Shown: positions 1 through 47,900 of the stretch, one piece after another
How positions within the stretch are numbered: the stretch's first letter is position 1
How the letters are laid out: the number at the start of each line of letters is the position of its first letter
Assembly: GCA_934157235.1 (NCBI GenBank)
Contig: CAKPHH010000001.1
Coordinates: forward strand, 131,330-195,329
Length of the DNA: 64,000 bases
Reading direction: 5' to 3'
Origin: an uncultured Bacilli bacterium
GTDB taxonomy: Bacteria; Bacillota_I; Bacilli_A; RF39; UBA660
The notes under the pieces: model-generated
What the model was told of the DNA's origin: nothing
The model's database searches: none
What the model saw: the letters and a program-made list of their open reading frames with translations, nothing else
Made by a program: the position numbers and the translations under genes

Positions 1-2
1 AT

Positions 3-266: not shown

Positions 267-360
267 TTGTTCCTTTTTTAATATCAACACAAATGCTTTT
301 TTGTAGTTGTAAAAAAACAATAAATAATGTAAAATACAATTATAGGGTAGGTGTTTAGAG

Positions 361-2301: not shown

Positions 2302-2337
2302 TTATATCATTCCTTTTAACTTAAAAGAGGTGAAAAT

Positions 2338-2697
2338 ATGAATGATTTAATAAATTCTAAACTAGACTCCCTAGAAAAATCTAAATTTAGAGGTTCATTT
2401 CACTTGAATAATAATATGAAGCAATATGTAAAAGATAAAGGTTATCCCAAGATTGAACAAGATGCCTATGATTTAATTACCAAACGATTAAAAGTGCTTC
2501 TCCCAAATGATGGTAAACAAACTCCTATGCGAGCTAATTCTCATCCAGTCTTTATTGCTGAACATGCAACAGGTACTTGCTGTCGTAGTTGCCTTGAAAA
2601 AATTCACCATATTAAAAAGGCTAAAATTCTAAACGATCAAGAAATAGCTTACATCGTCAAAGTTATAATGACCTGGATTCATCGTGAAGTAGATTAA
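2338..2697 (+). CDS. DUF4186-like small protein (conserved HATGTCCRSCLEK motif)
   Basis: The Cys-rich motif HPVFIAEHATGTCCRSCLEKIHHI resembles the DUF4186 signature. Good RBS AAGAGGTGA. Confidence 0.55.
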   Translation: MNDLINSKLDSLEKSKFRGSFHLNNNMKQYVKDKGYPKIEQDAYDLITKRLKVLLPNDGKQTPMRANSHPVFIAEHATGTCCRSCLEKIHHIKKAKILNDQEIAYIVKVIMTWIHREVD

Positions 2698-2844
2698 GAA
2701 AAGTGCAAAAGACAATTAAAAAAGCATAACGTTTACAAAGCATTAAGAATGACTAGTATCATTCTTTTCTTTTGTTCTAAAAAGTTGCTTTTTTTCCTAA
2801 AATAAAAAAAATATGTTATACTTTTAATAGGAGGGTAATGTTTA

Positions 2845-4218
2845 ATGAAAATAAAAGAAAATATAAATGAAAACATTTTTAGAGGTTATGACATTAGAGG
2901 TATTTATCCTACAGAATTAGATGAAGATACTGTCTATACTGTTGGCCTAGGTTTTGGTAGTTATATCCAAACCATTGGTAAAAATACTTGTGTAATTGGA
3001 CATGATAATCGTTTGTCAGGAGAAAGCCTATATAACGCTTTAATTAAAGGTATTACTGAAACCGGTGTAAATATAATTTCTCTTGGTTTATGTACAACTC
3101 CAATGTATTATTATGCTTGTATAAAACTAGGTATTCCATCTGGTGTAATGGTAACTGCTTCCCATAATCCTAAAGATGATAATGGCTTAAAATTTGCTTT
3201 TGATGAAAAAGGAAATTGTAAAGGTCAGGAAATACAAGACTTTCTAGCTTATATCAAAGCCGGTAATTTTAAAACTGGAAATGGTACTGTGACCAATTAT
3301 AGTATTAGAGAAGAATACTTAGATTTGTTCAAAACAAACCTACACTTTGGTTCAAGAAAACTAAAAGTCGTTATTGACCCTGGAAATGGTACAACTAGTA
3401 TTATTGCTAAAGAGTTATATGAAATGTTTCCAATGGAGTTACATGTAATTAATGGTGAAAGTGATGGAACATTCCCAAATCACCATCCTGATCCATGTGT
3501 TGAAGATAACTTAGCACAATTAAAGTCCAAAGTAAAAGAACTAGGTGCTGATGTTGGACTAGGCTTTGATGGTGATGGTGATAGATTAGGTGTTGTTGCT
3601 GAAGATGGAACTTTTATACCTACAGATAAATATATGATTATTATCGTTCGAGATATAATTAATAAGGTTGCTAAGAAAAAATTCCTATATGATGTAAAAT
3701 GTTCTAAATCTTTAAGTGATGAAATAGAACGCTTAGGTGGAGAAGGTTTATGCTATCGTACTGGAAACTCATACACTAAAGCTAAAGTTAGAGAAGATGA
3801 TCTACCATTTGGTGGTGAATTATCTGGACATGTTTACTTTAGAGATAGATGGCCAGGCTTTGATTCAGGCATATATGCGGGCCTTCGTTTATTAGAAATC
3901 TTATCTCATACTGATAAAACTGTAACTGAACTATTAGCAGGCATAAATAATTATTATTCAACAGAAGAATTAAAATTCAAAAGTAGTGATGATAAGAAGT
4001 TTGCTATTATTGATAAAGTAGCTGAATATGCTAAAAGTAAAGATTATAAATTCTTAGACATTGATGGCGTAAAAGTTTTATTTGCTGATGGCTGGGCTCT
4101 AGTAAGAGCTTCCAATACAGGACCTAATATAACCGCTAGATTTGAAGCAAAAACAGAAGACCGTCTAGAAAAATTGCAAAATGAGTTTATCAGCCTAATC
4201 GAAGAATATAATAAATAA
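2845..4218 (+). CDS. Alpha-D-phosphohexomutase (phosphoglucomutase/phosphomannomutase/GlmM family)
   Basis: Active-site Ser loop TASHNPKDDNGLK. Metal-binding FDGDGDR. N-terminal FRGYDIRG and C-terminal sugar-phosphate loop. RBS AGGAGGG. Confidence 0.85.
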   Translation: MKIKENINENIFRGYDIRGIYPTELDEDTVYTVGLGFGSYIQTIGKNTCVIGHDNRLSGESLYNALIKGITETGVNIISLGLCTTPMYYYACIKLGIPSGVMVTASHNPKDDNGLKFAFDEKGNCKGQEIQDFLAYIKAGNFKTGNGTVTNYSIREEYLDLFKTNLHFGSRKLKVVIDPGNGTTSIIAKELYEMFPMELHVINGESDGTFPNHHPDPCVEDNLAQLKSKVKELGADVGLGFDGDGDRLGVVAEDGTFIPTDKYMIIIVRDIINKVAKKKFLYDVKCSKSLSDEIERLGGEGLCYRTGNSYTKAKVREDDLPFGGELSGHVYFRDRWPGFDSGIYAGLRLLEILSHTDKTVTELLAGINNYYSTEELKFKSSDDKKFAIIDKVAEYAKSKDYKFLDIDGVKVLFADGWALVRASNTGPNITARFEAKTEDRLEKLQNEFISLIEEYNK

Positions 4219-4230
4219 TAAAGGAGTATT

Positions 4231-4719
4231 ATGAAAAAATTAGAAATACATTATCATTGTAATAGTGAAAATCCAACGCAAATAACCAGTCGTGCTTTTA
4301 ATGTCGACTCCATTTCTAAGACATCTTATCCAAAAGAGGTACCATATCTAATTGACATATATCAGCCAGTAACATATCTAGATGCCAATCTAGAAGAAAA
4401 ACAAATACCGGTAAAAATAACTTACATGGTAGGGGAAGTCTTAACATCAAGAAAAATAATTCAAACTGCAACATCAAAAATAAGAATGGAAAGAGACTTA
4501 CCAATCGTAAATCGCTATGTTGCACCTGGTAATCATGATACCTTATTTGCCGTTTATAAAACTCCAAAGAAAAAGAGAAGATATATAGAACTATTAACTG
4601 ATAGAATAAAAGTATTTAAAACTCCAGAAGACTTAAAAGAAGGCTTACTAAACTTTGAATTACTATTTTTTGAAGGTGAAAACGTAAAACGAGAAGAACC
4701 AAAAATTTATCAAAAGTAA
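4231..4719 (+). CDS. Tandem-paralog family member 1 (unknown function, cytoplasmic)
   Basis: Begins MKKLEIHYHCNSENP. Central VTYLDAxL...ITYMVGE. C-terminal VFKTPEDLKEGL...FELLFFEG...KIYQK, a pattern shared with the next four ORFs. RBS AAGGAG. Confidence 0.65.
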   Translation: MKKLEIHYHCNSENPTQITSRAFNVDSISKTSYPKEVPYLIDIYQPVTYLDANLEEKQIPVKITYMVGEVLTSRKIIQTATSKIRMERDLPIVNRYVAPGNHDTLFAVYKTPKKKRRYIELLTDRIKVFKTPEDLKEGLLNFELLFFEGENVKREEPKIYQK

Positions 4720-4852
4720 TAAATCTGTCTTAACTATACATAACTAATATTATTAATAGTATTGCTCCAAACACTATATTAAAGCTTTTTAAGTAATACT
4801 TAGTAAAAAAGATAAAAAGGAAAAACTACTAATAAAGTATTAAGGAGATAAA

Positions 4853-5347
4853 ATGGAAAGATTAGATGTAATATATTATTGTGACCCAGACAAACCAAAT
4901 AAGTTTTCTAAACATGTAGGAAACATCAGTAAATTGGAAGAGATTGGTTTTCCAGAAGATGAAACACCTGTTGTAATTGAAATAGTCCATGAGGTTGAGT
5001 ACTTGGATGCCGAGTTAAGACCAAGCCACTTTAAAAATCAAGTTACCTATACAGTTGGAGAAGAGCGAGACTCTAATGAAGTATTTTCTCCTATCTTCCA
5101 ACATAAAGTAGGTGATCCATATGCCTTCCATAGAAGTTGTCAGGATCATACTATGGTTGTATATACAAGCCCATCGGGAGTAAGATATACAAGACCTAAA
5201 AATTCTGATGTGAAAGCATTTAAAACTACAGAGGCTCTAAAAGAAGGTTTCATATTCTATTTAAATGCTTATTTTGAACAAAAAGAAAAATACCAAGAAA
5301 GTATAGCTGAAAGAGTAACTTCAGCCAAAGTCTATCAGAAAAAGTAA
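4853..5347 (+). CDS. Tandem-paralog family member 2
   Basis: MERLDVIYYCDPDKP, VEYLDAEL...VTYTVGEE, VVYTSPSGVRYTRPK...VKAFKTTEALKEGFIFYLNAYF...KVYQKK. RBS AAGGAGA. Confidence 0.65.
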   Translation: MERLDVIYYCDPDKPNKFSKHVGNISKLEEIGFPEDETPVVIEIVHEVEYLDAELRPSHFKNQVTYTVGEERDSNEVFSPIFQHKVGDPYAFHRSCQDHTMVVYTSPSGVRYTRPKNSDVKAFKTTEALKEGFIFYLNAYFEQKEKYQESIAERVTSAKVYQKK

Positions 5348-5357
5348 GGCTCCATAA

Positions 5358-5383
5358 AGAAAAGTGAACACTTTTCTTTTTTT
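5358..5383 (+). terminator. Rho-independent terminator after family member 2
   Basis: Stem GAAAAGTG / CACTTTTC with a 2-nt loop, followed by a T9 run. Confidence 0.6.
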
Positions 5384-5419
5384 TAGTTATTTTTTATAGC
5401 CCAACAAGCCAAGTAAAAT

Positions 5420-5448
5420 TTGCAAAAAAGCCAAAAATGTGATATAAT
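5420..5448 (+). promoter_or_regulatory. Near-consensus sigma-A promoter driving family member 3
   Basis: -35 TTGCAA (5420-5425), 17-nt spacer, -10 TATAAT (5443-5448) with an upstream TG (TGaTATAAT), followed by a GGGGG RBS. Confidence 0.6.
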
Positions 5449-5475
5449 ATGTGCACTATTGAGGGGGAATATAAT

Positions 5476-6072
5476 ATGAAAAAGTTAGATATCTATTATC
5501 ATTGTAAACCAAAAGGTCAAGAAAATGGTTTCTTTAGTGTTGAGGATGTTTTAAGTGCTGATGACATTAAATATCCTAAATTCTTTATACCAGTTCAAAT
5601 AGATGTTGTAAAAACAGAAACTAGAGAAGGTCTAGATGGCGAAGAAATAACTTCTACTTCTACCATGAAATATACAATTGGTAGTCTTGAACAAACAGCT
5701 AAAGTATTAACAGAAATAAAAGAAGATGAAGGTAGAATTGTTAAAACACCATATAGAACAAAAATGTTAACTGACGCTAAAGTACATGCTAGTAATGCTC
5801 TAAAAGAACAAATTTTATCTACCAATCCCGTTCTTTATAAAGATTATTTATATCCACAAGTAGCAGTCTTTAAAACACCAACAGGAGACAAACAAGTTTA
5901 TGCTAAAAGTAGTTCAGTTAAAGTGTTTAGTACACTATCTGCCCTAAAGATGGCTTTTATAGGTGATACAATTGACTACTTAGGTTCCAACAACAAAACA
6001 GAAACTCCTGCTAAAACTTACACAAAAAATACTAAATATAAAGGTCATTTCGACAACAATTCCAATAAATAG
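5476..6072 (+). CDS. Tandem-paralog family member 3 (start moved to the second Met)
   Basis: The ATG at 5449 lies inside the -10 element; the GAGGGGG RBS precedes ATG 5476. MKKLDIYYHCKPKG...VAVFKTPTGDKQVY...KVFSTLSALKMAFIGDTIDYL...KTYTKNTKYKGHF. Confidence 0.65.
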   Translation: MKKLDIYYHCKPKGQENGFFSVEDVLSADDIKYPKFFIPVQIDVVKTETREGLDGEEITSTSTMKYTIGSLEQTAKVLTEIKEDEGRIVKTPYRTKMLTDAKVHASNALKEQILSTNPVLYKDYLYPQVAVFKTPTGDKQVYAKSSSVKVFSTLSALKMAFIGDTIDYLGSNNKTETPAKTYTKNTKYKGHFDNNSNK

Positions 6073-6104
6073 AATTATACTTAATATAAAGAGGAGAATT
6101 TAAA

Positions 6105-6692
6105 ATGAAAAAATTAGATATTTTTTATCACTGTAATCATGAGTGCCCAAGAAGTTGTACTACATTTACCGCTAATGTTGGAAATGTAGATGAAATCGAA
6201 TGGCCAATTGAAAAATTAAAAGGACCAGTTCAAGTAGATGTTGTAAAAAAAGAAGTTGAAGGTGACAGAGTACTTTCTGCAGAAGTAACCACTTATATGA
6301 TTGGTAATATTGCCGAAGCTTCAGAAGTTATAATTAGTCCATTTGGTTATCTTGAGGCTATCCAACAACCATTAAGAGAAAGAAAACTACCAGCAAGCCA
6401 AGAAAAGTACCTAAGTGTTGAATACAAGCCTTATAGAATACCACATCCCTTAAGCTTCTATAAAAGATGTCCCAACAAAAAAATGATAGTTTATCAAACT
6501 CCATCTGGTCAAAAACAAATTTGTCCTAAAACAGAAGATATCAAAGTTTATAAAAATCTATCTGCTATGGCTATAGGCTTCTTAGGTGATGTTATTGATT
6601 ACTTTGCCGAAGCTGAAAAAGAAGAAAGTACCGCTAAAACTTATACAAAAAATGATAAATTTAAAGGTAACTTTCACGTTTTCTTTGAATAA
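6105..6692 (+). CDS. Tandem-paralog family member 4
   Basis: MKKLDIFYHCNHECP...MIVYQTPSGQKQICPK...KVYKNLSAMAIGFLGDVIDYF...KTYTKNDKFKGNF. Closest to member 3. RBS AGAGGAGA. Confidence 0.65.
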   Translation: MKKLDIFYHCNHECPRSCTTFTANVGNVDEIEWPIEKLKGPVQVDVVKKEVEGDRVLSAEVTTYMIGNIAEASEVIISPFGYLEAIQQPLRERKLPASQEKYLSVEYKPYRIPHPLSFYKRCPNKKMIVYQTPSGQKQICPKTEDIKVYKNLSAMAIGFLGDVIDYFAEAEKEESTAKTYTKNDKFKGNFHVFFE

Positions 6693-6747
6693 AACAAGAT
6701 AGTTAAAAGGACATAGATACATAAAAAAAGAAGGGAACAAATCAAAT

Positions 6748-7313
6748 ATGCAACCATTAAATGTAAATATCATTTTTCAAATGAAAGGTGTAAAAGTGGC
6801 TATCTCGATGTCGTAATCCCATCTCTTGATGAAATAATATATCCCAATGCCTATTTTGGCGACTGTCTAACAGATATGATTACTATTACACAAAACGTTA
6901 GTTATTTTGATGTGGAAGGCATCGAGCAGTCTATAAATAAAAAAGTAATACTAATAGTAGGTAAAGAAGAAAAGGCTGTTAAAGTATTAGATAATACAGA
7001 AGATTATTTAGTAGGGCAATCACATCTTGAAAGTGCTATGCCATTATTAAAAGTTAAAGGTAACTCTTTCCTACCAGATCAAGCTGATATAAGCCCATAT
7101 AACTTTGCCCAGAAATGCACTGGTAACCCTAGACAAATGATTGTCTATAAAGAACCAAACTCAAAGAAAAAATACATTTTTCCAAAGACAAAAACTACTA
7201 AGTCTTTTAAAACTCCAGCTGATTTAAAAGATGGATTCTATACTTTTCTAAAGGCTTATTTTGCTAACGATAATACAAAAGGTGAAAAAACAAAAGTATA
7301 TACAAGAAAATAA
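6748..7313 (+). pseudogene. Tandem-paralog family member 5, disrupted by an apparent -1 frameshift near 6763-6766
   Basis: An RBS AGAAGGGAA precedes ATG 6748, which encodes MQPLNV then runs into a stop at 6814-6816. The body frame (open from 6717) reads ...KYHFSNE... and ends ...KVYTRK. Restoring one base gives MQPLNVKYHFSNE, matching the family N-terminus M-x-x-L-[DEN]-[IV]-x-Y-H-[CF]. The ATG 6876 of the listed ORF has no RBS. Confidence 0.5.
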
Positions 7314-7342
7314 ATGTAATAGTATTAACTATAAATAAATAG

Positions 7343-7370
7343 AATATTCCCATTGGGAATATTTTTTCTT
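7343..7370 (+). terminator. Rho-independent terminator closing the paralog array
   Basis: Inverted repeat AATATTCCCA / TGGGAATATT followed by TTTTTTCTT. Confidence 0.55.
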
Positions 7371-7509
7371 TGCAAAAAAACTCTTGTCTAATTTTAAAAC
7401 TTATGATATATTGAAACAGACGTTTAGCGAGAAAATACTATATTTAAATTATAACTACATGAATAAATGTAGTATTTTGGTTTTTAAAGAATAAATTAAG
7501 GAGGTATAT

Positions 7510-9540
7510 ATGGCAATTAGTGAACAAGAATTTAAGACAGAACAGAAAATTTTAAAGAAAGTTCAAAAATTATTAGGTGACACATTATCATCATTAGGAC
7601 AAGAAGTTTATGATGATGAAGAAAACTTAAAAGAATTCAAAAAGATGATGTGGGAAGACTCCACTAGTTTCGATGAAGCAGAAATGCAACAAGTAATGGC
7701 CGCAACAGCTGGAGAAGCAGAACGAGCTCTTCAAAAACAATCCTATTTCAAAAAACTATGTCAAATTAAAAACAAGCCTTACTTTGCATCCATAATTTTT
7801 AAAGATGATGAAGGAAAAATTCATAACATTTATATTTCTCTAACTTATTTGAAAGATGATAATCTAAATAATATTTTATACGACTGGCGTAGTCCTGTCT
7901 GCAGCCTTTTCTACGACTATGAAGTAGGACCATGTTCTTACAAAGCCCCTGGCGGTATATATGAAGGTGAATTAAAACGTAAAAGACAATATAAAATAGA
8001 AAATAACAAACTAGTAGGTGTCTTTGACAATTCCTTAAATATTGATGATGAAGTTTTACAAGAAGTACTTGCGACTGAGTCTAGTGATAAGATGAAAAAT
8101 GTTGTTAATACTATCCAACAAGAACAAAATAAAGTAATAAGAAACTTAGAAGACAATAACTTAATAGTTCAAGGAATAGCTGGTTCTGGTAAAACAACTG
8201 TTGCCCTTCATCGAATTGCTTTCTTATTATATCGTTTAAAAAACTTAACCAGTAATAATATCTTAATTTTCTCTCCAAATAATGTCTTTACAGAATACAT
8301 TTCTGATGTCTTACCATCACTTGGAGAAAGTAATACTCTTCAAACTACTTTTAATGATTATCTATCATACTTTATAACCGAATATAAAAATGTCGAAACC
8401 TTCTCTGACTTTGTCTCAAGATATTATACTTATAGTGAAAAAGATCCAGAATTAGTAAAATATAAGCAAAGTGATGAAATTATTGCTGATCTAGATGCTT
8501 ACTTAAAAGACTATATTGCTAAATGTAAATTTACTGAAGATATCATTGAAAATGAATTTAATGTCGTTCTAAAAGAAGAATTAAATGAAATGTTAACTTA
8601 TAAATATGATCGTTTTCCATTATTTGAAAGAGTAGAAGAAATGTCTAAGAAACTATCTCAACAATTTTATAAAGGTAGTAATAAAAAAGTAAAAACATTT
8701 GGTAAACTACTAAAAGAAGCTTCTAATTTTGAAAAAGATTATAAGAAAATATATGCTGACTTCTGGCGTAGTTCTTTCTGTAAAATGCCGCTTTCTGATA
8801 GTATAATCAATTCCTTTGTCAAGAAAGATATTATTAATTATGAGGATGCCTTACTTTTCTCATACATAAAAGGTATCCTTCAAAGTTTCCCATACGAAGC
8901 AAATATTAAACAAGTAGTAATCGATGAAGCTCAAGATTATAACATGCTTCAATACATAATAATAAGCAAAATATTTAGAAAAGCTGATTTTACTATTTTA
9001 GGAGACATCAATCAAAATATTAATCCATACTATAGTTATAAAACTCTAGAGGATTTAAGTCCTTTATTTAAAGGTGATACAAAGTACTTAGAACTATTAA
9101 AAACCTATCGTTCTTCTCCTGAAATAATTGAATATACAAATAAAATCCTTAATTTAAAACATGTTAACGCTATCCGTAAAGATAATAATAAACCTGTAAT
9201 CTTTAGAAAAAATATCTCTAACTTAAAAGAGTCTCTTCTAACCGACATAAGTACTCTTCAAAGTGAATATAAAAGTACGGCAATTATAACCAAAGATTAC
9301 AAGGAGGCTGAGGAAATATATGACTTATTAAAGAATAATATCAACTTATCTTTAATTGATGCTAATACAAAAAGGTTCCAGAAGAATTTAATTGTTATAC
9401 CAGCCTATATTGCAAAGGGATTAGAGTTCGATAGTGTAATTATCTATAACGATCGTAACAATTCTTATCGCAAAAACGAGAGAAACTTACTATATGTTGC
9501 TTGTACTAGATGTCAACATGAATTATATATTTATAACTAA
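7510..9540 (+). CDS. UvrD/Rep-family (HelD-like) DNA helicase
   Basis: Walker A GIAGSGKTTVALHR. DExx-like VVIDEAQD. Motif VI-like C-terminus (LLYVACTRC). Strong RBS AAGGAGG. Confidence 0.8.
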   Translation: MAISEQEFKTEQKILKKVQKLLGDTLSSLGQEVYDDEENLKEFKKMMWEDSTSFDEAEMQQVMAATAGEAERALQKQSYFKKLCQIKNKPYFASIIFKDDEGKIHNIYISLTYLKDDNLNNILYDWRSPVCSLFYDYEVGPCSYKAPGGIYEGELKRKRQYKIENNKLVGVFDNSLNIDDEVLQEVLATESSDKMKNVVNTIQQEQNKVIRNLEDNNLIVQGIAGSGKTTVALHRIAFLLYRLKNLTSNNILIFSPNNVFTEYISDVLPSLGESNTLQTTFNDYLSYFITEYKNVETFSDFVSRYYTYSEKDPELVKYKQSDEIIADLDAYLKDYIAKCKFTEDIIENEFNVVLKEELNEMLTYKYDRFPLFERVEEMSKKLSQQFYKGSNKKVKTFGKLLKEASNFEKDYKKIYADFWRSSFCKMPLSDSIINSFVKKDIINYEDALLFSYIKGILQSFPYEANIKQVVIDEAQDYNMLQYIIISKIFRKADFTILGDINQNINPYYSYKTLEDLSPLFKGDTKYLELLKTYRSSPEIIEYTNKILNLKHVNAIRKDNNKPVIFRKNISNLKESLLTDISTLQSEYKSTAIITKDYKEAEEIYDLLKNNINLSLIDANTKRFQKNLIVIPAYIAKGLEFDSVIIYNDRNNSYRKNERNLLYVACTRCQHELYIYN

Positions 9541-9551
9541 GATGCTAAGCT

Positions 9552-10853
9552 TTATGCATCTTTTTCTTTTAGATAACTCCATACTTTATATAGTTCATAT
9601 ATTGTTACTACTAAAACATTTATACTAATCGCAATTATTAAGCCATAAATTCCAATCTTTAAATAGGAAAGTATAAATAATAGTCCTATTCTAGTAATCA
9701 TTCCAAGAGTTGTTGCTACCATAGCGTCTTTGCTTTTACCCATCGCATCAAGGGCCGAGGCTAATGGACTTTGTATATATTGCAGTAAACATATAGGAGC
9801 AAGTATTTGCATATAACTAACTCCTTCTGTTGTATGATAGATTATTCTTAAGAAAAACTCTGGAAACAAAACAAAAAGAATTGTTGCTGGTAGACCTATA
9901 GCCAAGGAAAAACTTATTGCTAGTTTTATTTTCTTCCTAACACTATCCTTTCTACCTCTGGTAAACTCTTTAGAAACTACCGGTAAAAGTGCCTGAGAAA
10001 TTGCTAGAGTAAAAAACGATGGTAGTAATATTAAAGGCATAACATATCCTGATAATACTCCATATTCTCTAGCAATATAGCCATTACTATATCCTACACT
10101 AAGTAAGACCAAACTAAGTATAATTGGCTCTAAAAAGTATCCTACACTTCCAATTAATCTTCCCGTAGTATTTGGTATTCCAATAGATAAACATTCTCTT
10201 ACATAGCTTCTGCTTGGCCTTAAATCACTTCTTTTAATAATAGTTCCTTTAGGTAAAAATAAAAATAAAACAACAATCGAAGCTCCTTCACTAATAATAT
10301 TAGAAAGAATGATATAACAAACCGCATATTCTAATCCCTTATCAATAACAAAAGGAATACCTACAATCATTAAAATCAAACGCACAACATCTTCTAATAA
10401 ATTAGAAACAACATGTGGTCCCATTCGCTCTTTGCCAAAAAAATAACTTCTCGAAATACTCGAAATACTAGTAAAAGGAATAACTAAAGCAATAGCTAAA
10501 ATACCATAATAAGTCTTACTATTATTAAGTAAATTATTAGATAGAATAGGGGCGAATAATAAAATAATAACAATAAGAATAATATTTACTAAAAGAACAA
10601 CTGGTAACACCGAAAAAAATAGTTTCTTATTATTCTTAGTATCTTCTGCAATTAACTTTGCTAAAGCAACTGGCATACCTAACTGACTCAGTCCAATAAA
10701 AAGAGAAAAAGTAGGTAAGATTAACATATAAAGACCTAAACCTTCAGTCCCAATAAGTCTACTCATTATTATTTTTATTAACATTCCGAGAATCTTAGTA
10801 AAGAATCCTCCAATTAATAATATTAACGTTGATTTAATAAATTTTTCTTTCAT
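9552..10853 (-). CDS. MOP-superfamily polysaccharide / lipid-linked oligosaccharide flippase (SpoVB/MurJ/Wzx-like)
   Basis: Polytopic, about 12 TM helices, 433 aa. General similarity to polysaccharide-biosynthesis/MviN-like proteins. Confidence 0.7.
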   Translation of the reverse strand: MKEKFIKSTLILLIGGFFTKILGMLIKIIMSRLIGTEGLGLYMLILPTFSLFIGLSQLGMPVALAKLIAEDTKNNKKLFFSVLPVVLLVNIILIVIILLFAPILSNNLLNNSKTYYGILAIALVIPFTSISSISRSYFFGKERMGPHVVSNLLEDVVRLILMIVGIPFVIDKGLEYAVCYIILSNIISEGASIVVLFLFLPKGTIIKRSDLRPSRSYVRECLSIGIPNTTGRLIGSVGYFLEPIILSLVLLSVGYSNGYIAREYGVLSGYVMPLILLPSFFTLAISQALLPVVSKEFTRGRKDSVRKKIKLAISFSLAIGLPATILFVLFPEFFLRIIYHTTEGVSYMQILAPICLLQYIQSPLASALDAMGKSKDAMVATTLGMITRIGLLFILSYLKIGIYGLIIAISINVLVVTIYELYKVWSYLKEKDA

Positions 10854-11045
10854 AGTAAGTTATATGAAAAAGCTAAAAATAAAATAACTCTTAACAATAA
10901 GTTGACAACAAACATTCATGTAAATTATGTAAATCGAACAAACGTGAGAAAACGTAAAAGCTATTGTAAAATTTTTGCAAAAAACAATTCTTATCTTCCC
11001 TTTAAATATTACATGTGATATTCTTTAAATAAGAGGTGGACGTAA

Positions 11046-12110
11046 ATGAACGATTTAATCAAATTATTAACATCGCAAGAAATAATAATAGTTTATATTG
11101 TTGCTGCCGTTGCCTGTTTTCTATACTTTATAATTTACTTAATAGATAAAAGTTATCATAAGAGGAGACAAAAACAAAATACTAGAGAATTAAATCGTCT
11201 AGTTGAAGATATAAATGCTCATATAGCAGAAGAAACAAAAAATTTAGAACCTGTTACAATTGAAGAAGAAAAGAAAGAACCATTCGTTTACGTAGAACCT
11301 GTTTTAGTAAAAGAAGAAGTTCCAGCTATTACTCCAGTAGAACCAACTATTCAGGTTGAACCAATCGTAACTCAAGAAGAAAAAATAGAAGAAGTAAAAG
11401 AAGTAGAAAAAACAGAACCAGTAATAATTGAAAAAACAGAAGAAGAGGAAGTTACTTCAAGTATTGAAGAATTAGTTTTAGATAGTATGGAATCTACTCC
11501 TGAGCCAGAAATAACTTATACCGCAATCGAACCAAATCCAGAACAAGCTCAAGAGGAGTTAAGAAAATTAACTGAAGAGTTAGAAAAGGCTGAAGAAGAA
11601 ACTAGAAATATTGATTTAACTAGTTATGAAGAAGCTCAAGAAAGAGATGCAATCATTAGTTTAGATGAATTACTAAAAAAATCTAAAGAAATGTATGCTA
11701 ATAATGAATTAACTCAATATGAAGATGAAGGTAATGAACCAATCAGTTTAGCTGACTTAGAAGCCAAAATGAAACAAGTGGCAGCTATAGAACCAACACC
11801 AGTTGAGTATCAAGAACCAGTTATGGAAACAATTACTGAACAAGTAGTAGAAACTCCAGTACAACAACAAATGATTTTAGACGACTTCAATACTGTTAAG
11901 GTTGAACCAGAAAAAAGACCAGTTTATCAAGAAACATACAAGTATAAACCATCTCCAATCATTTCTCCAATCTATGGTATTGAAAAGACTACACAACAAA
12001 CAGATCTTGAGTTAGAAAATACTGCTAATTATGAAAAATTAGATGAAGAAATTAAAAAGACAAATGAATTCATCATGTCTTTAAAAGATTTACAAAAACA
12101 TTTAGATTAA
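11046..12110 (+). CDS. N-terminally membrane-anchored, highly acidic (E/P/V/T-rich) protein of unknown function
   Basis: One TM helix (IIIVYIVAAVACFLYFIIYLI), then a low-complexity acidic segment with repeated EP/VEP/TP units and coiled-coil-like stretches. RBS AAGAGGTGGA. Confidence 0.5.
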   Translation: MNDLIKLLTSQEIIIVYIVAAVACFLYFIIYLIDKSYHKRRQKQNTRELNRLVEDINAHIAEETKNLEPVTIEEEKKEPFVYVEPVLVKEEVPAITPVEPTIQVEPIVTQEEKIEEVKEVEKTEPVIIEKTEEEEVTSSIEELVLDSMESTPEPEITYTAIEPNPEQAQEELRKLTEELEKAEEETRNIDLTSYEEAQERDAIISLDELLKKSKEMYANNELTQYEDEGNEPISLADLEAKMKQVAAIEPTPVEYQEPVMETITEQVVETPVQQQMILDDFNTVKVEPEKRPVYQETYKYKPSPIISPIYGIEKTTQQTDLELENTANYEKLDEEIKKTNEFIMSLKDLQKHLD

Positions 12111-12140
12111 CTAGGGTATCCTAGTTTTTTATTTTTTTTC
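12111..12140 (+). terminator. Rho-independent terminator
   Basis: CTAGG-GTAT-CCTAG hairpin followed by a long T run. Confidence 0.6.
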
Positions 12141-12250
12141 GAAAAATTGCCGGAAAAGTTCAAAATATTTAGTATTATATTATTGAGGACATTGAAAAAA
12201 ATACCTGAATATGCTATAATTTGATAACGAGTTGATAGGGGGAATTTTAT

Positions 12251-12925
12251 ATGAAAAAGGCTATTATTTTAACTATTTGTATATTACTATCGGTAACTGC
12301 TTGCACTACCAAGAAAGAAGAAACTGTAGCAAATAAAGATTCTATAGAAACTAAAGAAATAACTCTAGTAACTGAACAAGACACAACAACCATTGCAACT
12401 GATGAAGAAGTTGTCGAGTACATTGAAGATGTTACCAATGAGGTTGAAACATTAACCGAAGAAGAAAGTCTTTCTGAAAAGACTAAGCAATCTTTAAAAA
12501 AGACTTTTATCACCTTAACTGATTTCATCTTTTATGATGGAACAATCAAAGGAAAGACTTTTAAAGAATTAAGCTATGAAGCTCAAACTAAAATTCTTGA
12601 ATTATATGAAAAAATAGATACGAAAATAGAAAGTGTTTTTCCAAATTATAAAGAAGAAATAAAAGATACTTCAACCAAAACTTATAGTAAAGCAAAAGAA
12701 AAAGCTAAAGAATTAAAAGAAAAAATTAAAAGTATTTATATCGAAAGAGTCGGTGAAGATACTTATCAAAAAGAAATGGATATTATCAAAAATACCAAAG
12801 ATAAAGTTGTTGAAAAGACAACTCCGGTTATTTCTGATGTTAAGGATAAAGCCAAAGATACTTATACTAAAACTAAAGATAAATTAGATGAATGGTATAA
12901 AAACTTTAAAGAAAGTAGTGAATAA
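12251..12925 (+). CDS. Lipoprotein, K/E-rich, unknown function
   Basis: Signal peptide with lipobox LSVTAC. Charged low-complexity mature part. RBS GGGGGAA. Confidence 0.6.
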   Translation: MKKAIILTICILLSVTACTTKKEETVANKDSIETKEITLVTEQDTTTIATDEEVVEYIEDVTNEVETLTEEESLSEKTKQSLKKTFITLTDFIFYDGTIKGKTFKELSYEAQTKILELYEKIDTKIESVFPNYKEEIKDTSTKTYSKAKEKAKELKEKIKSIYIERVGEDTYQKEMDIIKNTKDKVVEKTTPVISDVKDKAKDTYTKTKDKLDEWYKNFKESSE

Positions 12926-22820: not shown

Positions 22821-23183
22821 ATGTCGAAAGAAACATTTAAAGCATTTGCTAGGAGTCATCCTGAACTTGCAACATCTGTCATGAAAAATAATGCAACTTG
22901 GCAAAAACTTTATGAACTATATGAAATATATGGTGAAAACAGCCAAGTATGGGATGGCTACTTTTCAAAAACAACATCTCTTTCCGATAAGACAACCGCC
23001 TTTTCTGCCTCTTTCAAAGACTTATTTAATACCGTAAAAAATGTTGATCTAGAATCAGTTCAAAAAGGCGTAAATAATCTTCAAAAAACTATTGGTCTCC
23101 TTCAAGATATCGGTTTTTCAACAACAGCATCCAAAACTCCAACTTATGAACCAAGACCAATCCATAAATACTTCGAGGATTAA
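22821..23183 (+). CDS. YlbD-like (spore-coat-associated) small protein
   Basis: The motif FKAFARSHPELATSVMKNNATWQKLYELYEIYGE resembles B. subtilis YlbD. Sits upstream of rsmD (ylbH), as in Bacillus. Confidence 0.45.
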   Translation: MSKETFKAFARSHPELATSVMKNNATWQKLYELYEIYGENSQVWDGYFSKTTSLSDKTTAFSASFKDLFNTVKNVDLESVQKGVNNLQKTIGLLQDIGFSTTASKTPTYEPRPIHKYFED

Positions 23184-23713: not shown

Positions 23714-24258
23714 AAGTAATATCTGGAATATATAAAGGTAGAAATTTAAAAGGATTTAATATGCCTGGAACAAGGCCAACAATGGATAGGGTAAAAGAAA
23801 GTCTCTTTGCTTGCATTCAAAATGATTTAAAAGAAAGCGTTGTCCTTGATTTGTTTTCAGGATCTGCCTCTCTTGCTATCGAAGCTCTTAGTCAAGGCGC
23901 GAAAGAGGCTTATGCTGTTGATAAGAATAAAGAAGCAATTAAGACAATTAATGAAAATATTAAAAATATTGGTGTCAAAAATTGTAAAGTATATCTATCT
24001 AGTTATGACCAAGCCTTACAAAAATTTAAAGCAGAAAATCTTAAATTTGATTTGATTTTTTTAGATCCTCCGTATGAAACAAATTATATTGAAAAAAGCC
24101 TAAAATTAATATTAGAATTAGATTTGTTAAGTACTAATGGTTTAATAGTTTGCGAAAGTAACAGTCTAGATAAAATAATCTTCTCACCAAGCTTAACAAA
24201 TATCAAAGAAAAAAGATATGGCGATAAATGGGTGGTTATCCTTAAAAAAGTATGCTAA
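23710..24258 (+). CDS. rsmD: 16S rRNA (guanine966-N2)-methyltransferase RsmD
   Basis: GRNLKG, DLFSGSASLAIEALSQGA (SAM-binding), FLDPPYE catalytic motif. Start moved to MKVISGIYKGR. Confidence 0.8.
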   Translation: MKVISGIYKGRNLKGFNMPGTRPTMDRVKESLFACIQNDLKESVVLDLFSGSASLAIEALSQGAKEAYAVDKNKEAIKTINENIKNIGVKNCKVYLSSYDQALQKFKAENLKFDLIFLDPPYETNYIEKSLKLILELDLLSTNGLIVCESNSLDKIIFSPSLTNIKEKRYGDKWVVILKKVC

Positions 24259-24285
24259 AATATAAATAGAATAAAAGAATAAATA

Positions 24286-26343
24286 ATGGTGATGCTAATG
24301 AATAAGTGTAAATTGAATAATCGAGGGTTTGCAATTTCTTCTGTATTATATTCCTTATTAATAATGGTCTTTTTAGTAGTAACATTAATGATGGGAATAA
24401 TGGCATCTAACAGAAGAAGTACCCATAAATTAGTTGATACAATTGAAGAAGAATTAAATCGATATGGTCTTTCTTCAACCGAATTAGGCTATAAAGATAA
24501 TGGTGGGAACCTAGAAGCTCAAGAGTATGTAGCTTTACAATCAGGCTGGTACAAAATAGAACTATGGGGTGCTGCAGGGGGCTCTACTAATTCAAAAATC
24601 GGAAATAAAGTTCGAAATGGTGGCAGAGGCTCTTATACATCTGGTCTTATTTATCTAAATAAAGATGATAAATTATATTTCTATATTGGTGGTACAACGA
24701 CTACTAATAAAGGCGGTGCCAATGGCGGCGGCGATGGTGGAACGGAAACTGGCATGGGCGGCGGCGGAGCTACTGATGTTCGCTATGGTACTGAATTAGA
24801 AACTAGAATAATGATTGCTGCTGGTGGTGGGGGAGCCGACTCTTTAGGAAAAGGATCATCTGGCGGCTCTGGTGGAATATTAAGCGGTAATAGTGCTAAT
24901 GTTAATAATACCAGTGATGGTACTTATACCAAAGCTGTATATGGTAAACAAGAAGGCCTAACAAGCCAAACACAAAGTAAAGCTAATGAGGCAACAATAA
25001 AAAAACTTTGTAATGCTGCGACCATGACATCTAATACTACTTTTGATTATAATGCCTGTGGTAGATTAGGTTATGGTGGAAGTGCCTCAGGTGCCAATGG
25101 TGGCGGCGGTGGAGCTGGTTACTTCGGCGGAGGTGCTGGAACTGGTAACAACTCTACATCTGGTTCTGGAGCTGGAGGTTCAAGCTTTATTGTAGGCTAC
25201 TCTGGAATATATATAAAGGGAATTACTGTAGATGAGACTTACTACATACCTGACCCAACAAGAGAAAGTCCATATTATTTCCTTGATGGTATGATATCAG
25301 GTGCAGTTAATAATGACGAAGGTCACGCTAAAATAGAACTTGTTTCCTTATTAGGAGCCGATGAAAAACCTCGTATCAGAAACAACGATTTGAAAGAAGT
25401 ACAATATATTAAAGACTGCACTAAAGGAACAAATGATAACCGAAAGGTTGCTTCTTGGATTGAACTACAAGCTTTAACAAACGGAACCAACGTTGCATTA
25501 AATAAACAATTAACAGTACTTAAAAATAATGCTGATATAACAGCTGACATTCAAGCCTCAACACTTAAAAGAGTGGTGGATGGAAATACATCCTCAGCCG
25601 TTCGCCTTGATGTTAATAAAGATACAAATGATGAAGTATGTGTAATTGTTAATCTTGGCAGCGTATACGAACTAGATGAAATATATGCTTATCACAGATG
25701 GGGTAACACTAGAAGTGCGGCAATATACGGCCATAACTTATCATTATCAACAGATAACAGAAATTGGAAGACAATTAAATCCTATACTGATGATAGTGTT
25801 GAAAGTCCTCCTGAACAGTCATCTGCTTACCGTTACACAGCATGGTCACTTAACCCAAGTGAAAAGATTGCTAAAGGAATTTATTTTATTAAGTCAGCTC
25901 TAGGTGGCGAAGGAAGATTCTTGGTAGCTCAAAACAATAACGACAGTGTCACTGGTGAGACAATGGCCGAACGCCACGTTTCCTTAGGCAAAAATCTTAA
26001 TGGTAATATCAATAAATGGGCCATTAGTGAACTTGATAATGGTTACTACAAAATTGTTGAAGTAGAAGGAAATAATGCCCTTCAAGTAAAAGATAACCTT
26101 GGTCAAGAAAATACTGCTGTAAATACAGCTGACAAACATGGTAAAGATTATGATTGGACACAATGGAAAATAACTCCACTAAAAGATGGAACCTATTATA
26201 TTCAAACCAAAGTTGGAAATAATTTTTATCTTGCCACAACGAAAAACTCCTTCTTTGTTGATTCAGACATAAGAATAACAAAAAAAGGTACTGGAGATAC
26301 CCTTTATACAACTAGATGGAAGCTAGAATTAGCATCATATTAG
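24286..26343 (+). CDS. Surface protein: prepilin-like/TM N-terminus, glycine-rich (Gly_rich-like) domain, F5/8 discoidin-like domain, C-terminal ricin-B (QxW) beta-trefoil lectin domain
   Basis: N-terminus NNRG|FAISSVLYSLLIMVFLVV. GGxGG-rich region at about aa 90-300. NRKVASWIELQ...AYHRWGNTR discoidin-like. C-terminal repeats with TQWKI and TRWKLE motifs. Confidence 0.7.
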   Translation: MVMLMNKCKLNNRGFAISSVLYSLLIMVFLVVTLMMGIMASNRRSTHKLVDTIEEELNRYGLSSTELGYKDNGGNLEAQEYVALQSGWYKIELWGAAGGSTNSKIGNKVRNGGRGSYTSGLIYLNKDDKLYFYIGGTTTTNKGGANGGGDGGTETGMGGGGATDVRYGTELETRIMIAAGGGGADSLGKGSSGGSGGILSGNSANVNNTSDGTYTKAVYGKQEGLTSQTQSKANEATIKKLCNAATMTSNTTFDYNACGRLGYGGSASGANGGGGGAGYFGGGAGTGNNSTSGSGAGGSSFIVGYSGIYIKGITVDETYYIPDPTRESPYYFLDGMISGAVNNDEGHAKIELVSLLGADEKPRIRNNDLKEVQYIKDCTKGTNDNRKVASWIELQALTNGTNVALNKQLTVLKNNADITADIQASTLKRVVDGNTSSAVRLDVNKDTNDEVCVIVNLGSVYELDEIYAYHRWGNTRSAAIYGHNLSLSTDNRNWKTIKSYTDDSVESPPEQSSAYRYTAWSLNPSEKIAKGIYFIKSALGGEGRFLVAQNNNDSVTGETMAERHVSLGKNLNGNINKWAISELDNGYYKIVEVEGNNALQVKDNLGQENTAVNTADKHGKDYDWTQWKITPLKDGTYYIQTKVGNNFYLATTKNSFFVDSDIRITKKGTGDTLYTTRWKLELASY

Positions 26344-26375
26344 AGGCCTCTTTACAGGCCCTCTAATTTTTTTAA
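26341..26375 (+). terminator. Rho-independent terminator
   Basis: AGAGGCC-tctttaca-GGCCCTCT hairpin followed by a T7 run. Confidence 0.5.
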
Positions 26376-26381
26376 AAAATA

Positions 26382-26408
26382 TTAGCACAAGTGGTTGACA
26401 AGTGCTAA
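26382..26408 (+). promoter_or_regulatory. CIRCE operator 1 (HrcA binding site)
   Basis: TTAGCACAA-N9-AAGTGCTAA, against the consensus TTAGCACTC-N9-GAGTGCTAA. The 9-nt spacer contains the -35 TTGACA. Confidence 0.75.
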
Positions 26409-26423
26409 AAAAAGTCATACAAT
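26395..26423 (+). promoter_or_regulatory. Sigma-A promoter of the hrcA-grpE-dnaK operon, embedded in and between the CIRCE elements
   Basis: -35 TTGACA (26395-26400), 17-nt spacer, -10 TACAAT (26418-26423). Confidence 0.55.
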
Positions 26424-26427
26424 ACTA

Positions 26428-26454
26428 TTAGCACTGATAAAGTGATAGTGCTAG
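26428..26454 (+). promoter_or_regulatory. CIRCE operator 2
   Basis: TTAGCACTG-N9-TAGTGCTAG, immediately upstream of the AGGAGG RBS. Confidence 0.8.
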
Positions 26455-44974: not shown

Positions 44975-47900
44975 ATGAAAGAAATTAATGCCATAGTAAA
45001 AAGGTTAAAATATCCAGTTGCTACAATTGTACTAGTAACTGCCTGTTATATCTGTTTAACTGCCAAGGAAACTTTTAGTGCGGATACAAAAAATTATACT
45101 AGGGATGAATTGCAAAAAATGGTCGTATCTGCTGCTATTAGCTACTACTACAACAATTACTATTCTGATTATGAAGAATATTTATTGGATTCAGATATTG
45201 TATATCCCTATATTGGGGGAAAAAACGATGTATCATCTGAAAATAAAAACAAATGCATTTTAGATTATCAAAATAAAACTGGATGTGTTTCGGCCGATAA
45301 TTACTACCCACTAATATCAACAACTTTTTACAGAAATCTAAAAATAACTCCAGAAGAAGTAAGCCGTTCTAATATGTATAACACTGATTGCACGGGTTTT
45401 ACTTATTTAGTATATAATAATGTCTTAGGTTATGATTTGTCAGAATTTTATGCAATGGCAACTTCTGCAAACGTTGTTAGAATTAATTCCAATGGTACAC
45501 CAGAAAAAACAAAAGCTGTAACATCAAAGAAGGATTATTTTGATACTGCTAATAAGTTTGGTAGGGCATGGAACAGCACTGGTAATTTAGGAAGGATCGC
45601 CAATTGTTTAGCAACTAACGCCGGAAACAGAAATGCCTGCATTTTTAGTGATGTCTTATCTTCTAATGATATGAAAAAATATGCTGCAGGTGGTACCAAC
45701 TTTAAAGAGGGTGTAATTTATACAGATCCAGATAATAAATCAGAGCTTATTTTTAATTATAATTTTACAAATCTTGACTACCAAAAAGAAACTAACTATA
45801 CAGCCTATAAAGTTGAGTGGGAGAAAATAGAAAAATATTTTAAAGCTGATAGCAGTGATTTTATAATGCAAGCAGGAGATATGTTACGACTTGCTTATAG
45901 ATCAAATGGGCATGTCATGGTTTACGTCGGTAAGGTTTTCAACTCAAATGACACCGGTCTTATTCACTCTACAGGAACAGATGGTAATAGCGATGATTTT
46001 GGTGTTAGATATGAGTCAAACATATATAATTATTTAAATGATAAAATGTCATACTTAAAGAATAATGGAGACAAAAATAGAATAATAAGTATATCGGTAT
46101 TTAGACCTATCAATAAATATTGTGATAAAACAATATGTACCAAAGAAAATATTGCTTCTAATATTACTCCTAATGATAAAGCACGAGTGACTTTTTCAGG
46201 CACTAGAGTTGAACAATACATTGCTAAAGATGGTAGAGGTATCAGTTCTTATAACTCTGTTGATATTGGTGATACTATCACTTATGGCCTAAGTCTAGAG
46301 GATAAAAGAAAATATGGTTATTGTTCAAATAGTTCAAAAGCAAAAAAAGACTGTGCTTGTACAGAAGAAAATCCAAATTGTGGATTAAAATGGGTTGAAA
46401 CTGGCAATTCCTATGATGAAGGACCATCAGGCAAGAAAAAATACACAATAAAATTCACTTCGCCAAAAGGAACAACATTAAAAGAATGTCCCAAAGCATT
46501 TAGCAAAACCACTAATTCAGACAATAGTGTATCATGTGTATATACTGGAACTGGTTGGAATTACCCACAGTTTAATGTTAATATTGATAGTTCAGCTCCT
46601 AGTAAAATAGAGCCAGGAAAATTTGAAGTTACATACAATGGTAGTACTTTAGAACTAAAAACAATTGAATTGAATGTTAATCGAACTATAAATTTTAATG
46701 ATATTAGTAATCTAAATGAAAAGATAAATGAATTCAAAAATAAAAATTACACTTATAGCACTAGCAACCAAATTAGTGATAAAAATAGTATGAACAAAGT
46801 AACCACATTTTCATCATTAGACTTCATTAAATATATTTATTGGAAAAACTTTAAAATTGATTTGACTAATTTAACAGGACAGAAAATTGTTGATTCTTTA
46901 TTTTATTCGTATTCCAAATCTTCTACTCAGAAATATAACACTAAAAATTACACATACAAATATAGTGCCTTTTTCAAGAAGAATGGAACTGATGATGCTA
47001 TCAGTAAAATGCTAGTAGATGGAATGTATGGCGGTAAAAAGCTAATCGGTAATGAAGATGGAAAAAGAATTAAGTATATCCACCATAGATACTTTGAAAT
47101 TGGTGATATTATTGTAGTATCAGATAAAATTAATGATAATTTTTCTCACAGTGGAGTTGGGAATTCTTTAAACTTCAGTTTAACTACAATAAATCCAAAT
47201 ACTGATTTTAAATATTATATGGTTACTGATTTTGATAAGAATGGTTACCCAACATTAATTAATTTCAGTGAAAATGGTGTTGAGTCTTGTGATAAAACTA
47301 TTAAAACATTTAGTGGCGAAGGAAATTATCTCATGAACAATGGTAAGAATTATTTGTGTAATTATAGGGTAATAAAACACTTATTATATTCATCAAACTT
47401 ATTTGCAGTACTTAGACCAAGTAAAGTATATAATGATGCTGAGTATGAAGTAGTTCTACATTATGATCAAAAACCAACAACAGAAGAAACTCCAAGAACA
47501 AACTTGAAATATAATACTAAATATCCAGTGCCAACAATATCTAAAACAGGATACGAGTTTGATGGATGGTACACTGAACTTTCTGTCAATGACAAAGGCG
47601 AGTATGTGTACAATAAAAAAGCAACTAAAGTTAATTTACACACCGATCATGAAGTATGGGCAAAGTTTTCTCCTATTGAATATAATCTTACCATCAAACC
47701 TAACGGTGGTACTTTCTCTGGTGCTACCTCTGTAAAAGTTGCCTATAAAAAAGAATATACTCTTCCAACTATTACTAGAGAAGGCTATACTTTCGTTAAA
47801 TGGCAAGTATCAGGTAAAGACAGTAGTATAAATGGAAACACACTAACAATGGGGAACGAAGATGCAACAGCAACGGCAGTTTGGAAAGAAAATGATCATC

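Follow-up and report, generated by a model that had tools for sequence, protein, structure and literature searches.

A Glu5-less, pilin-like N-terminal module fused to an ALK-type glycine-rich domain and lectin-type folds in an uncultured gut Bacilli bacterium

Modular pilins, including those that bear lectins, are known, and pilins joined to a glycine-rich domain (GRD) of the type present in the animal receptors ALK and LTK have already been catalogued. Two modular pilins of Streptococcus sanguinis are PilB, with a vWA module, and PilC, whose unusually short pilin moiety bears Ig-like as well as lectin modules (PMC8179133; Shahin et al. 2023, PNAS, PMC9934059). The datasets of Raynaud et al. 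2021 (PNAS, PMC8179133) contain the combinations IPR012902-PF12810 (two proteins) and IPR012902-PF12810x3 (one protein) as well as one fusion of PF12810 with PilY1, and their Dataset S1 also holds one IPR012902-IPR000421 and one IPR012902-IPR000772 protein; all of these are listed there without discussion. Subunits that lack the glutamate at position 5 of the mature protein (Glu5) have been described as well. The class III signal of S. sanguinis PilA is degenerate, lacks Glu5 and escapes prediction tools, yet PilA is treated as a pilin processed by prepilin peptidase; GspK-type subunits, also without Glu5, cap the filament, the lack of this residue putting a subunit at the filament top (PMC9934059). 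The gene considered here lies at 24286..26343 on the forward strand of a 64,000-nucleotide stretch of DNA from an uncultured Bacilli bacterium (contig CAKPHH010000001.1, positions 131,330 to 195,329), which is called the window in the following. Related contigs and loci are referred to by L numbers.

The initial annotation had placed an open reading frame (ORF) at this position, and both its coordinates and the translation quoted for it were recovered; the ORF encodes 685 aa. The product is given about an even chance of being a divergent, Glu5-less, modular type IV pilin-like surface adhesin that is cleaved by the prepilin peptidase PilD and displayed at the tip of a pilus. Like PilB and PilC of S. 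sanguinis, it combines a pilin-type helix with grafted adhesive modules, lectins among them, that would be suited to display at the tip, and it shares the lack of Glu5 with S. sanguinis PilA and the GspK-type subunits. The differences are considerable, however. In PilB and PilC, the class III signal is canonical, includes Glu5 and matches IPR012902; both possess a pilin fold and belong to the pil operon. The window protein, on the other hand, has neither Glu5, nor a match to the pilin hidden Markov model (HMM), nor a pilin head, it joins three modules, and its gene stands by itself between rsmD and hrcA. No effector modules are present in PilA, which is a small pilin, and GspK contains an alpha-domain as an insertion; here, by contrast, the Glu5-less subunit itself would carry the lectins. 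The NNKGFA[IV]S[TS]xLY module of the window protein is also absent from PilA and GspK. The parts of the protein are the following.

24298..24327 (+): MNKCKLNNRG, a putative leader peptide of class-III-like type whose last residue is the invariant Gly(-1).
24328..24465 (+): pilin-alpha1-like helix, 26 hydrophobic residues from Phe(+1) followed by an amphipathic part, SNRRSTHKLVDTIEEELNRY.
24475..25350 (+): ALK/LTK-type TG/glycine-rich domain (PF12810, a pLDDT of ~90, Foldseek and profile matches).
25399..25845 (+): tentative beta-sandwich of the discoidin / F5-8 type C / CBM32-like kind, more variable than any other domain (weak Pfam matches and structural model).
25873..26340 (+): ricin-B-type beta-trefoil lectin domain (PF14200, Foldseek and profile matches).

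In the mechanism proposed, the N-terminal helix would insert the protein into the membrane, and the prepilin peptidase encoded by the genome would remove the short basic leader after the invariant Gly. The alpha1-like helix could then dock into a type IV filament. Since Glu5 is absent, the subunit would be expected to sit at the very tip, in the manner of GspK-type subunits and S. sanguinis PilA. The rigid GRD would act as a stalk or scaffold holding out the discoidin/CBM32-like domain and the beta-trefoil lectin, both presumably binding glycans.

The evidence begins with the N-terminus, which had been described as pilin-like on account of a Gly at -1, a Phe at +1 and a hydrophobic helix without Glu at +5. 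This is what is found: the leader MNKCKLNNRG is short and positively charged, ends in Gly(-1) and is followed by a hydrophobic stretch of 26 residues, FAISSVLYSLLIMVFLVVTLMMGIMA, which is the arrangement of a class III signal. A search of 1.84 billion representative proteins with a 58-residue query (E<=0.001, clusters at 50% identity) retrieved this N-module from 338 protein clusters, with the match at the extreme N-terminus in 150 of the 150 listed, and with the consensus MKKLNNKGFA[IV]S[TS]xLYGL...SxNRxNTxxLVxxIExELNRY. Among 100 diverse members, whose mean column identity is 14%, the only invariant columns are the G and the F that correspond to positions -1 and +1 of a prepilin cleavage site; judging from the alignment, this lies far beyond chance. 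Both asparagines of the leader are at least 90% conserved in the same set.

A relationship to pilins is indicated by several further comparisons. Canonical pilins with Glu5 from related metagenome-assembled genomes (MAGs) have the leader NNKGF too, and alignment of the N-module with 23 canonical pilin N-termini from related loci by hhalign gave a probability of 91%. When the 58-residue fragment was compared with 18,950 NCBIfam models, only two matches were returned, both to pilin models and both below threshold (NF007660, E=0.019; ComGE, E=0.03). In an AlphaFold2 model, residues 13-58 form one continuous helix of 46 residues, with a predicted local distance difference test (pLDDT) score of 41-79.

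Conservation along the protein is very uneven. Over 35 full-length homologues, the mean identity is 80% for residues 9-60, falling to 47% in the GRD, 42% in the trefoil and 32% in the discoidin-like domain. A fast-evolving ectodomain behind a nearly frozen N-module is as would be expected of an exposed adhesin mounted on a conserved assembly interface.

The same region could also be read as a long signal peptide, with signal peptidase I cleaving near GIMA|SNRR and the GRD-lectin leaving the cell in soluble form by the ordinary Sec route. This is considered most unlikely. Beta-trefoil and HA33-like proteins are indeed commonly secreted, and the residue at the candidate -1 position is often small (A, S or G), with I, L or M often at -3. 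However, some members have Q, F or N at the candidate -1 position, 26 hydrophobic residues would make a long h-region, and the invariant G-F pair opens the hydrophobic part, a place where Sec signals are unconstrained. In addition, conservation is strong beyond the putative cut, in NRxNTxxLVxxIExELNRY, and this segment is predicted to form a continuous helix with the hydrophobic part; it fits a pilin alpha1 helix and not a mature N-terminus.

The module is joined to a restricted range of partners. Among 100 members, a ricin-type trefoil is present in 67 and a GRD in 62, and F5/8C-like domains also occur; occasionally, the module heads ChW repeats or DUF6273. One such protein, with the N-module and DUF6273 (L065, 10007-11530), is encoded directly upstream of hrcA, in the same place as the window gene, and in two other loci (L025 and L062) the module heads proteins with other C-terminal regions. 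It seems that passenger domains can be exchanged in this slot while the module in front of them stays the same.

All four domain assignments of the initial annotation, namely the pilin-like N-terminus, the glycine-rich region, the discoidin-like domain and the trefoil, held up, the discoidin-like one tentatively. The AlphaFold2 model, for which 35 homologues were used (mean pLDDT 78.9, predicted template modelling score 0.76), is composed of the N-terminal helix (13-58), the GRD (~64-355), a beta-sandwich (372-520) and a beta-trefoil (530-685). No NCBIfam model covers the protein as a whole.

The glycine-rich region is the most clearly assigned part. PF12810 (ALK_LTK_GRD) matches residues 82-352 with E=8.3e-35 and 121.4 bits against a cut-off of 24.5, spanning model positions 3-242 of 243, which agrees with the earlier assignment to the ALK type. 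In a Foldseek search of the PDB, the top match is the TG domain of LTK (7nx1, E=2.7e-9), with many ALK GRD entries next, and the probability is 1.00 for 7nx1, 7lrz, 7ls0 and 7nwz alike; a profile of the window protein's family also matches ALK in the PDB (E=3e-4). Pure disorder of the region had been named as an outcome that would count against the proposal, but it is modelled with a pLDDT of ~90. Because of this confident model and the structural and profile matches to LTK and ALK, the region is predicted to be a folded domain, not disorder. The TG domain of animal ALK/LTK (7nx1, 7lrz, 7ls0, 7nwz) thus shares both PF12810 family and fold with the window GRD. In animals the domain belongs to a kinase receptor and has ALKAL cytokines as its ligands, whereas the window GRD is placed between a pilin-like helix and lectin domains.

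The middle domain is less sharply defined. For residues 428-503, the F5_F8_type_C and NedA-like models give E~1e-5, just under the gathering scores (26.7 against 27.8 for PF22633 and 25.6 against 28.2 for PF00754). The earlier discoidin-like assignment is backed by weak precomputed PF00754/PF22633 matches in homologues, by the beta-sandwich of the AlphaFold2 model, and by a family-profile match (E=0.005) to PDB 4lks, which we take to be a CBM32-type module. These matches weakly suggest a discoidin/CBM32-like beta-sandwich.

The C-terminal domain matches PF14200 (RicinB_lectin_2) at residues 577-652 with E=2.3e-8 and 35 bits against a gathering score of 25.6. Foldseek aligns it with ThreeFoil (3pg0) at a template modelling (TM) score of 0.83 and with the GalNAc lectins 9kl2 and 5xg5, the TM-scores of the beta-trefoil lectin matches being ~0.8 when normalised to the target; the family profile matches ThreeFoil (E=2e-10) and a CBM13 (E=1e-5). 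A trefoil with QxW motifs had been proposed. The trefoil was borne out, but the motifs are degenerate in this protein (NKW, TQW and TRW); their tryptophans are conserved, and the consensus of the family is QKW / TQW / QRW.

With such domains, the ectodomain could have a function other than adhesion to a host or partner. Displayed by the same N-module, it might serve nutrition by taking up glycans, as the archaeal bindosome does, or be directed against competing cells like the B-subunit of a toxin or bacteriocin; together, these roles are regarded as very unlikely. Small-genome gut lineages of this sort are thought to depend on external nutrients. Matches to the CDtoxinA, Botulinum_HA-17 and Ricin_B models are present in some members carrying the N-module, and the structure search with the window protein also returned HA33 and a mosquitocidal holotoxin. 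These toxin-type matches, however, all reflect the common beta-trefoil lectin fold. Pfam and NCBIfam scans detected no catalytic or toxic domain in the protein, and no transporter or toxin partner genes adjoin its gene.

The link between the GRD and pili does not depend on the divergent N-module, as the domain is also carried by canonical pilins of related bacteria. Proteins with Pfam matches to both N_methyl and the GRD are encoded at seven loci (L017, L028, L029, L044, L061, L068 and L072) and have textbook N-termini (KGFTLIELL); that of L017 also has an F5/8C-like domain. In Ca. Pelethosoma merdigallinarum (L045), a pilin composed of N_methyl, Ig and GRD parts is encoded in a cluster with Pfam-confirmed T2SSF, Peptidase_A24, T2SSE and pilin genes, and the same five components are present in L052. 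The order of L045 is repeated in L054, where a protein with a pilin-type N-terminus has a GRD match running into the contig end, and in L020 T2SSE and pilin genes stand beside a GRD match. From these loci the ALK-type GRD can be recognised as a recurrent pilus-associated module, in some cases encoded inside pilus clusters.

The canonical GRD-pilins, for example those of L045 (DVKJ01000015, 548 aa) and L028 (Mycoplasmatota SUG259, 432 aa), allow a direct comparison. Their GRD core is 33-49% identical to that of the window protein, they too have a leader of the form NNKGF or KKGF, and they too come from gut Bacilli with small genomes. By contrast, their N-termini read KGFT[LV][IV]E and match PF07963, a pilin or Ig-like moiety precedes the GRD, and several of their genes lie beside PilC, PilD, PilB and pilin genes (L045, L052) or beside other pilin genes (L028). 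At seven loci (L017, L020, L041, L045, L052, L076 and L077) the GRD match is followed by ylbJ and/or ylbL. In the gene order of B. subtilis, these two genes presumably belong to the same ylb neighbourhood as rsmD (ylbH). Because ylbJ and ylbL stand by the GRD-pilins and share this neighbourhood with rsmD, there are hints that the solitary gene of the window and the GRD-pilin genes are positional relatives.

The hrcA region of L028 is of separate note. In this Mycoplasmatota MAG (JALERC010000043), three tandem, near-identical canonical pilin genes (1-2009) lie directly upstream of hrcA, which is where the window gene stands in its own lineage, and a small pilin gene together with a pilin-GRD gene (8619-10339) follows dnaJ.

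Processing of the N-module by prepilin peptidase presupposes that the enzyme is present, and the initial annotation had named a missing peptidase, together with a predicted cleavage by signal peptidase I, as evidence against a prepilin. The genomes closest to the window are that of 'Mycoplasma sp. CAG:877' and MAGs of uncultured gut bacteria labelled 'Bacilli bacterium'. Two contigs from Hadza human-gut metagenomes (L086 and L087; 314 kb and 428 kb) are 99.3-99.4% identical to window positions 1-12297 and extend the sequence upstream by 9.64 kb. This extension encodes a T2SSF/PilC protein (537 aa) and a Peptidase_A24 protein (254 aa) at L086 405-2802, that is, 6.8-9.2 kb upstream of window position 1; the peptidase gene ends ~6.8 kb before that position and ~31 kb upstream of the window gene. 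The catalytic motifs of the peptidase are intact: the CxxC...CxxC region is present, as are the two Asp motifs of the active site (SDLTYLIIPD and GGGDIK). PilC and PilD are 46% and 40% identical to their counterparts in the L045 cluster. On the sequence evidence, the genome encodes an intact PilD and a PilC. With a peptidase present and the glycine-rich region modelled as folded, neither outcome named in advance as refuting the proposal was observed.

The pilC-pilD pair recurs in the clade, with tgt/yqfQ on one side and dnaB on the other. It is an isolated pair without an adjacent ATPase or pilin gene, which is unusual for a pilus locus. In a related genome, PilC and PilD (L090) and a homologue of the window protein (P0007, L081) are encoded on one scaffold, 30.7 kb apart, and five PilC homologues have longest contigs of the same size as those of homologues of the window protein (457337, 134315, 298964, 289098 and 97133). 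Between lineages whose versions of the window protein are ~50% identical, PilD is 85% and PilC 74% identical. Taken with the domains of the protein and the GRDs on canonical pilins, PilD and PilC support the earlier proposal of a carbohydrate-binding adhesin that is either at a pilus tip or tethered to the membrane, with glycans as its presumed ligands.

Of the com/pil genes for which a search had been suggested, PilC and PilD were found, but a T2SSE ATPase and a canonical pilin were not. The DNA covered amounts to ~80 kb, made up of the window and about 16 kb of flanks (9.64 kb upstream and ~6.4 kb downstream), which we take to be <10% of a genome estimated at roughly 1 Mb. No pilus gene of the window itself was brought up by Pfam scans of ~40 ORFs or by a regex search for N-termini of the pilin type, and the translations of the unannotated window ORFs 11046, 12251, 21591, 58395 and 60696 are without pilus-related features. 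The downstream extension of ~6.4 kb, made via a Lactamase_B gene, has no pilus genes either. The gene at 51531-53159 was rejected as a second pilin-like candidate, as BLASTP against a pilin gave E=0.058 and a PDB search returned no pilins. It encodes a membrane-anchored protein of 542 aa without a Pfam match, in which the N-terminal AKGFPFKNF is followed by a transmembrane segment, and which contains three KHYCxIVNxKYYGK...YEKEC repeats.

A number of observations weigh against a pilus subunit and have to be set against the evidence above. In all 146 of the 146 members inspected, the N-module has Ser or Thr at +5 and never Glu. Neither PF07963 (N_methyl) nor TIGR02532 matches the full protein at E<=1, the 58-residue fragment at E<=10 or any of 100 members at E<=0.01, whereas canonical pilin controls reach E=1e-6 to 4e-8 with the same HMMs. 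The AlphaFold2 model contains no globular alpha-beta pilin domain or separate head, and the GRD begins ~20 residues past the helix, across a junction of low pLDDT; in canonical GRD-pilins, helix and GRD are 120-270 residues apart. The gene stands by itself among housekeeping genes, ~31 kb from pilC-pilD and without neighbouring pilin genes. A T2SSE ATPase and a canonical or major pilin were not found in the ~80 kb. A profile built from four PilB proteins of related MAGs returned no match whose longest contig equals that of a homologue of the window protein; the top 120 matches were all at least 64% identical to the query lineages and did not reach this lineage, so that the result is uninformative on the absence of PilB.

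These observations can be accommodated by an N-module that is of pilin descent but no longer enters a filament. The protein would then be bitopic (N-in, C-out), with or without trimming by PilD, and the helix and the GRD stalk would hold the lectins at the cell surface. Such a pilin-derived membrane anchor is the main alternative; it is somewhat doubtful, though it deserves serious consideration. It would account for the loss of Glu5 and of the globular pilin domain, for the unmatched pilin HMMs, for a gene that stands alone and away from pilus genes in every locus of the clade, and for the missing ATPase and major pilin. It also fits the fact that relatives with a canonical pilin N-terminus keep the GRD gene in or next to the pilus cluster, so that separation goes with degeneration. 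On the other hand, a plain anchor would not require a conserved leader, and both the invariance of G and F and the near-invariant cytoplasmic NNK are left unexplained. The same holds for 80% identity over 52 residues while the ectodomain has drifted to 32-47%. Retention of PilC and PilD, both well conserved in the clade (74% and 85%), is likewise not accounted for by an anchor.

A more far-reaching interpretation would make the NNKGFA[IV]S[TS]xLY module a separate, previously unrecognised subclass of class III signals, by which head-less lectin proteins are displayed through prepilin peptidase and a minimal PilC-PilD system. This is thought unlikely. The proteins would then act either as a self-sufficient Glu5-less tip subunit or independently of a filament, like the bindosome. 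In the archaeal bindosome of Sulfolobus, sugar-binding proteins with class III signal peptides are processed by PibD and have their own Bas assembly genes. The window protein resembles these in being a large, presumably binding protein with a pilin-type N-terminus rather than a classical pilin, with the difference that the bindosome is archaeal; no Bas genes came to light here, no search having been aimed at them. If a separate subclass did exist, display on bacterial pili would be the principal and more ancient role of the family that includes the GRD of animal ALK/LTK.

The chromosomal position of the gene is fixed. The order rsmD, target gene, hrcA is kept across the whole clade. The possibility of several N-module genes per locus, as in a minor-pilin operon, was discarded, since each locus has exactly one. 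Across the clade, HrcA is 92-96% and ParC 87-95% identical, and the target protein only 45-52%. In the window, which has a G+C content of ~30%, the upstream neighbours are parE/parC-like topoisomerase genes, ylbD, ylbF and rsmD, and hrcA-grpE-dnaK-pepF follow downstream.

The architecture had initially been thought undescribed. Pilin-GRD combinations are already contained in Dataset S1 of Raynaud et al. (PMC8179133), and what is new is the direct fusion of the N-module, without a pilin head, to an array of GRD, discoidin-like domain and trefoil. Also new are the divergent N-module itself, which is missed by the tested pilin HMMs and widespread among uncultured Bacilli of the gut, a solitary locus that keeps its place while evolving fast, and the view that the ALK-type GRD recurs as a module associated with pili. 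A look at the literature on pili of RF39/RFN20 and on PF12810 in bacteria yielded nothing useful. As the tested HMMs miss a module that heads several hundred clusters, surveys of pilins and modular pilins under-count such proteins. The ALK/LTK GRD is given a bacterial setting, being fused to canonical pilins, to the N-module and, in the published dataset, to PilY1. Finally, a fast-evolving lectin adhesin in a fixed chromosomal slot of small-genome, not yet culturable bacteria from human-gut (Hadza) metagenomes is a candidate colonisation factor.

The expression signals around the gene have a bearing on the length of the leader.

24253..24261 (+): TGCTAAAAT, an extended -10-like motif that overlaps the stop codon of rsmD and may belong to a promoter of the gene itself.
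24288..24293 (+): Shine-Dalgarno-like GGTGAT, 4 nt before the ATG at 24298 and inside the ORF as initially annotated.
26345..26370 (+): GGCCTCTTTACAGGCC, a hairpin resembling an intrinsic terminator, with a T run behind it, which sets the gene apart from the hrcA operon.

The true start is probably the ATG at 24298, giving a protein of 681 aa with the leader MNKCKLNNRG, and not the ATG at 24286, because the Shine-Dalgarno-like motif precedes the former in the window and, in the ~20 related loci compared, the corresponding ATG, from which MK(K)LNNKGF is read, has a purine-rich GGTGAT, GGTGGT or GAGG in front of it. The distance from rsmD, initially given as 28 nt, was measured as 27 nt to the first ATG and 39 nt to the likely start. 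The extended -10-like motif possibly represents the gene's own promoter. A sequence of the form TATG[A/C]TAAAAT is present upstream at a comparable distance in most of the related loci aligned; a simple promoter scan did not flag the motif at 24253..24261 owing to a poor -35. Co-transcription with hrcA was ruled out by the terminator hairpin and by hrcA's own promoter with its CIRCE-like repeats. This promoter (26385-26450; TTGACA, 17 nt, TACAAT) has two CIRCE-like inverted repeats (TTAGCAC...GTGCTAA) on its flanks.

Elsewhere in the window, five tandem paralogous ORFs without a Pfam match (162, 164, 207, 195 and 145 aa) occupy 4231-7313 and share a similar N-terminus (MKKLDIYYHC) and a similar C-terminal motif. 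Their copy number varies between near-identical strains, with window positions 6127-7358 missing from L086 and the whole stretch present in L087. At 44975-49737, a protein of 1112 aa with Listeria-Bacteroides repeats and a C-terminal dockerin is encoded, and an overlapping gene encodes a protein of 475 aa with a signal peptide, a Pro/Thr-rich linker and a C-terminal transmembrane segment; the two may form a cohesin-dockerin-like surface pair. Genes related to sporulation are present as well, namely GerA and GerAC-like germination genes at 61207-63014 (-) and a homologue of the coat protein YlbD at 22821-23183 (+). Their presence suggests that the source organism forms spores, although the nearest named genome is that of 'Mycoplasma sp. 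CAG:877'.

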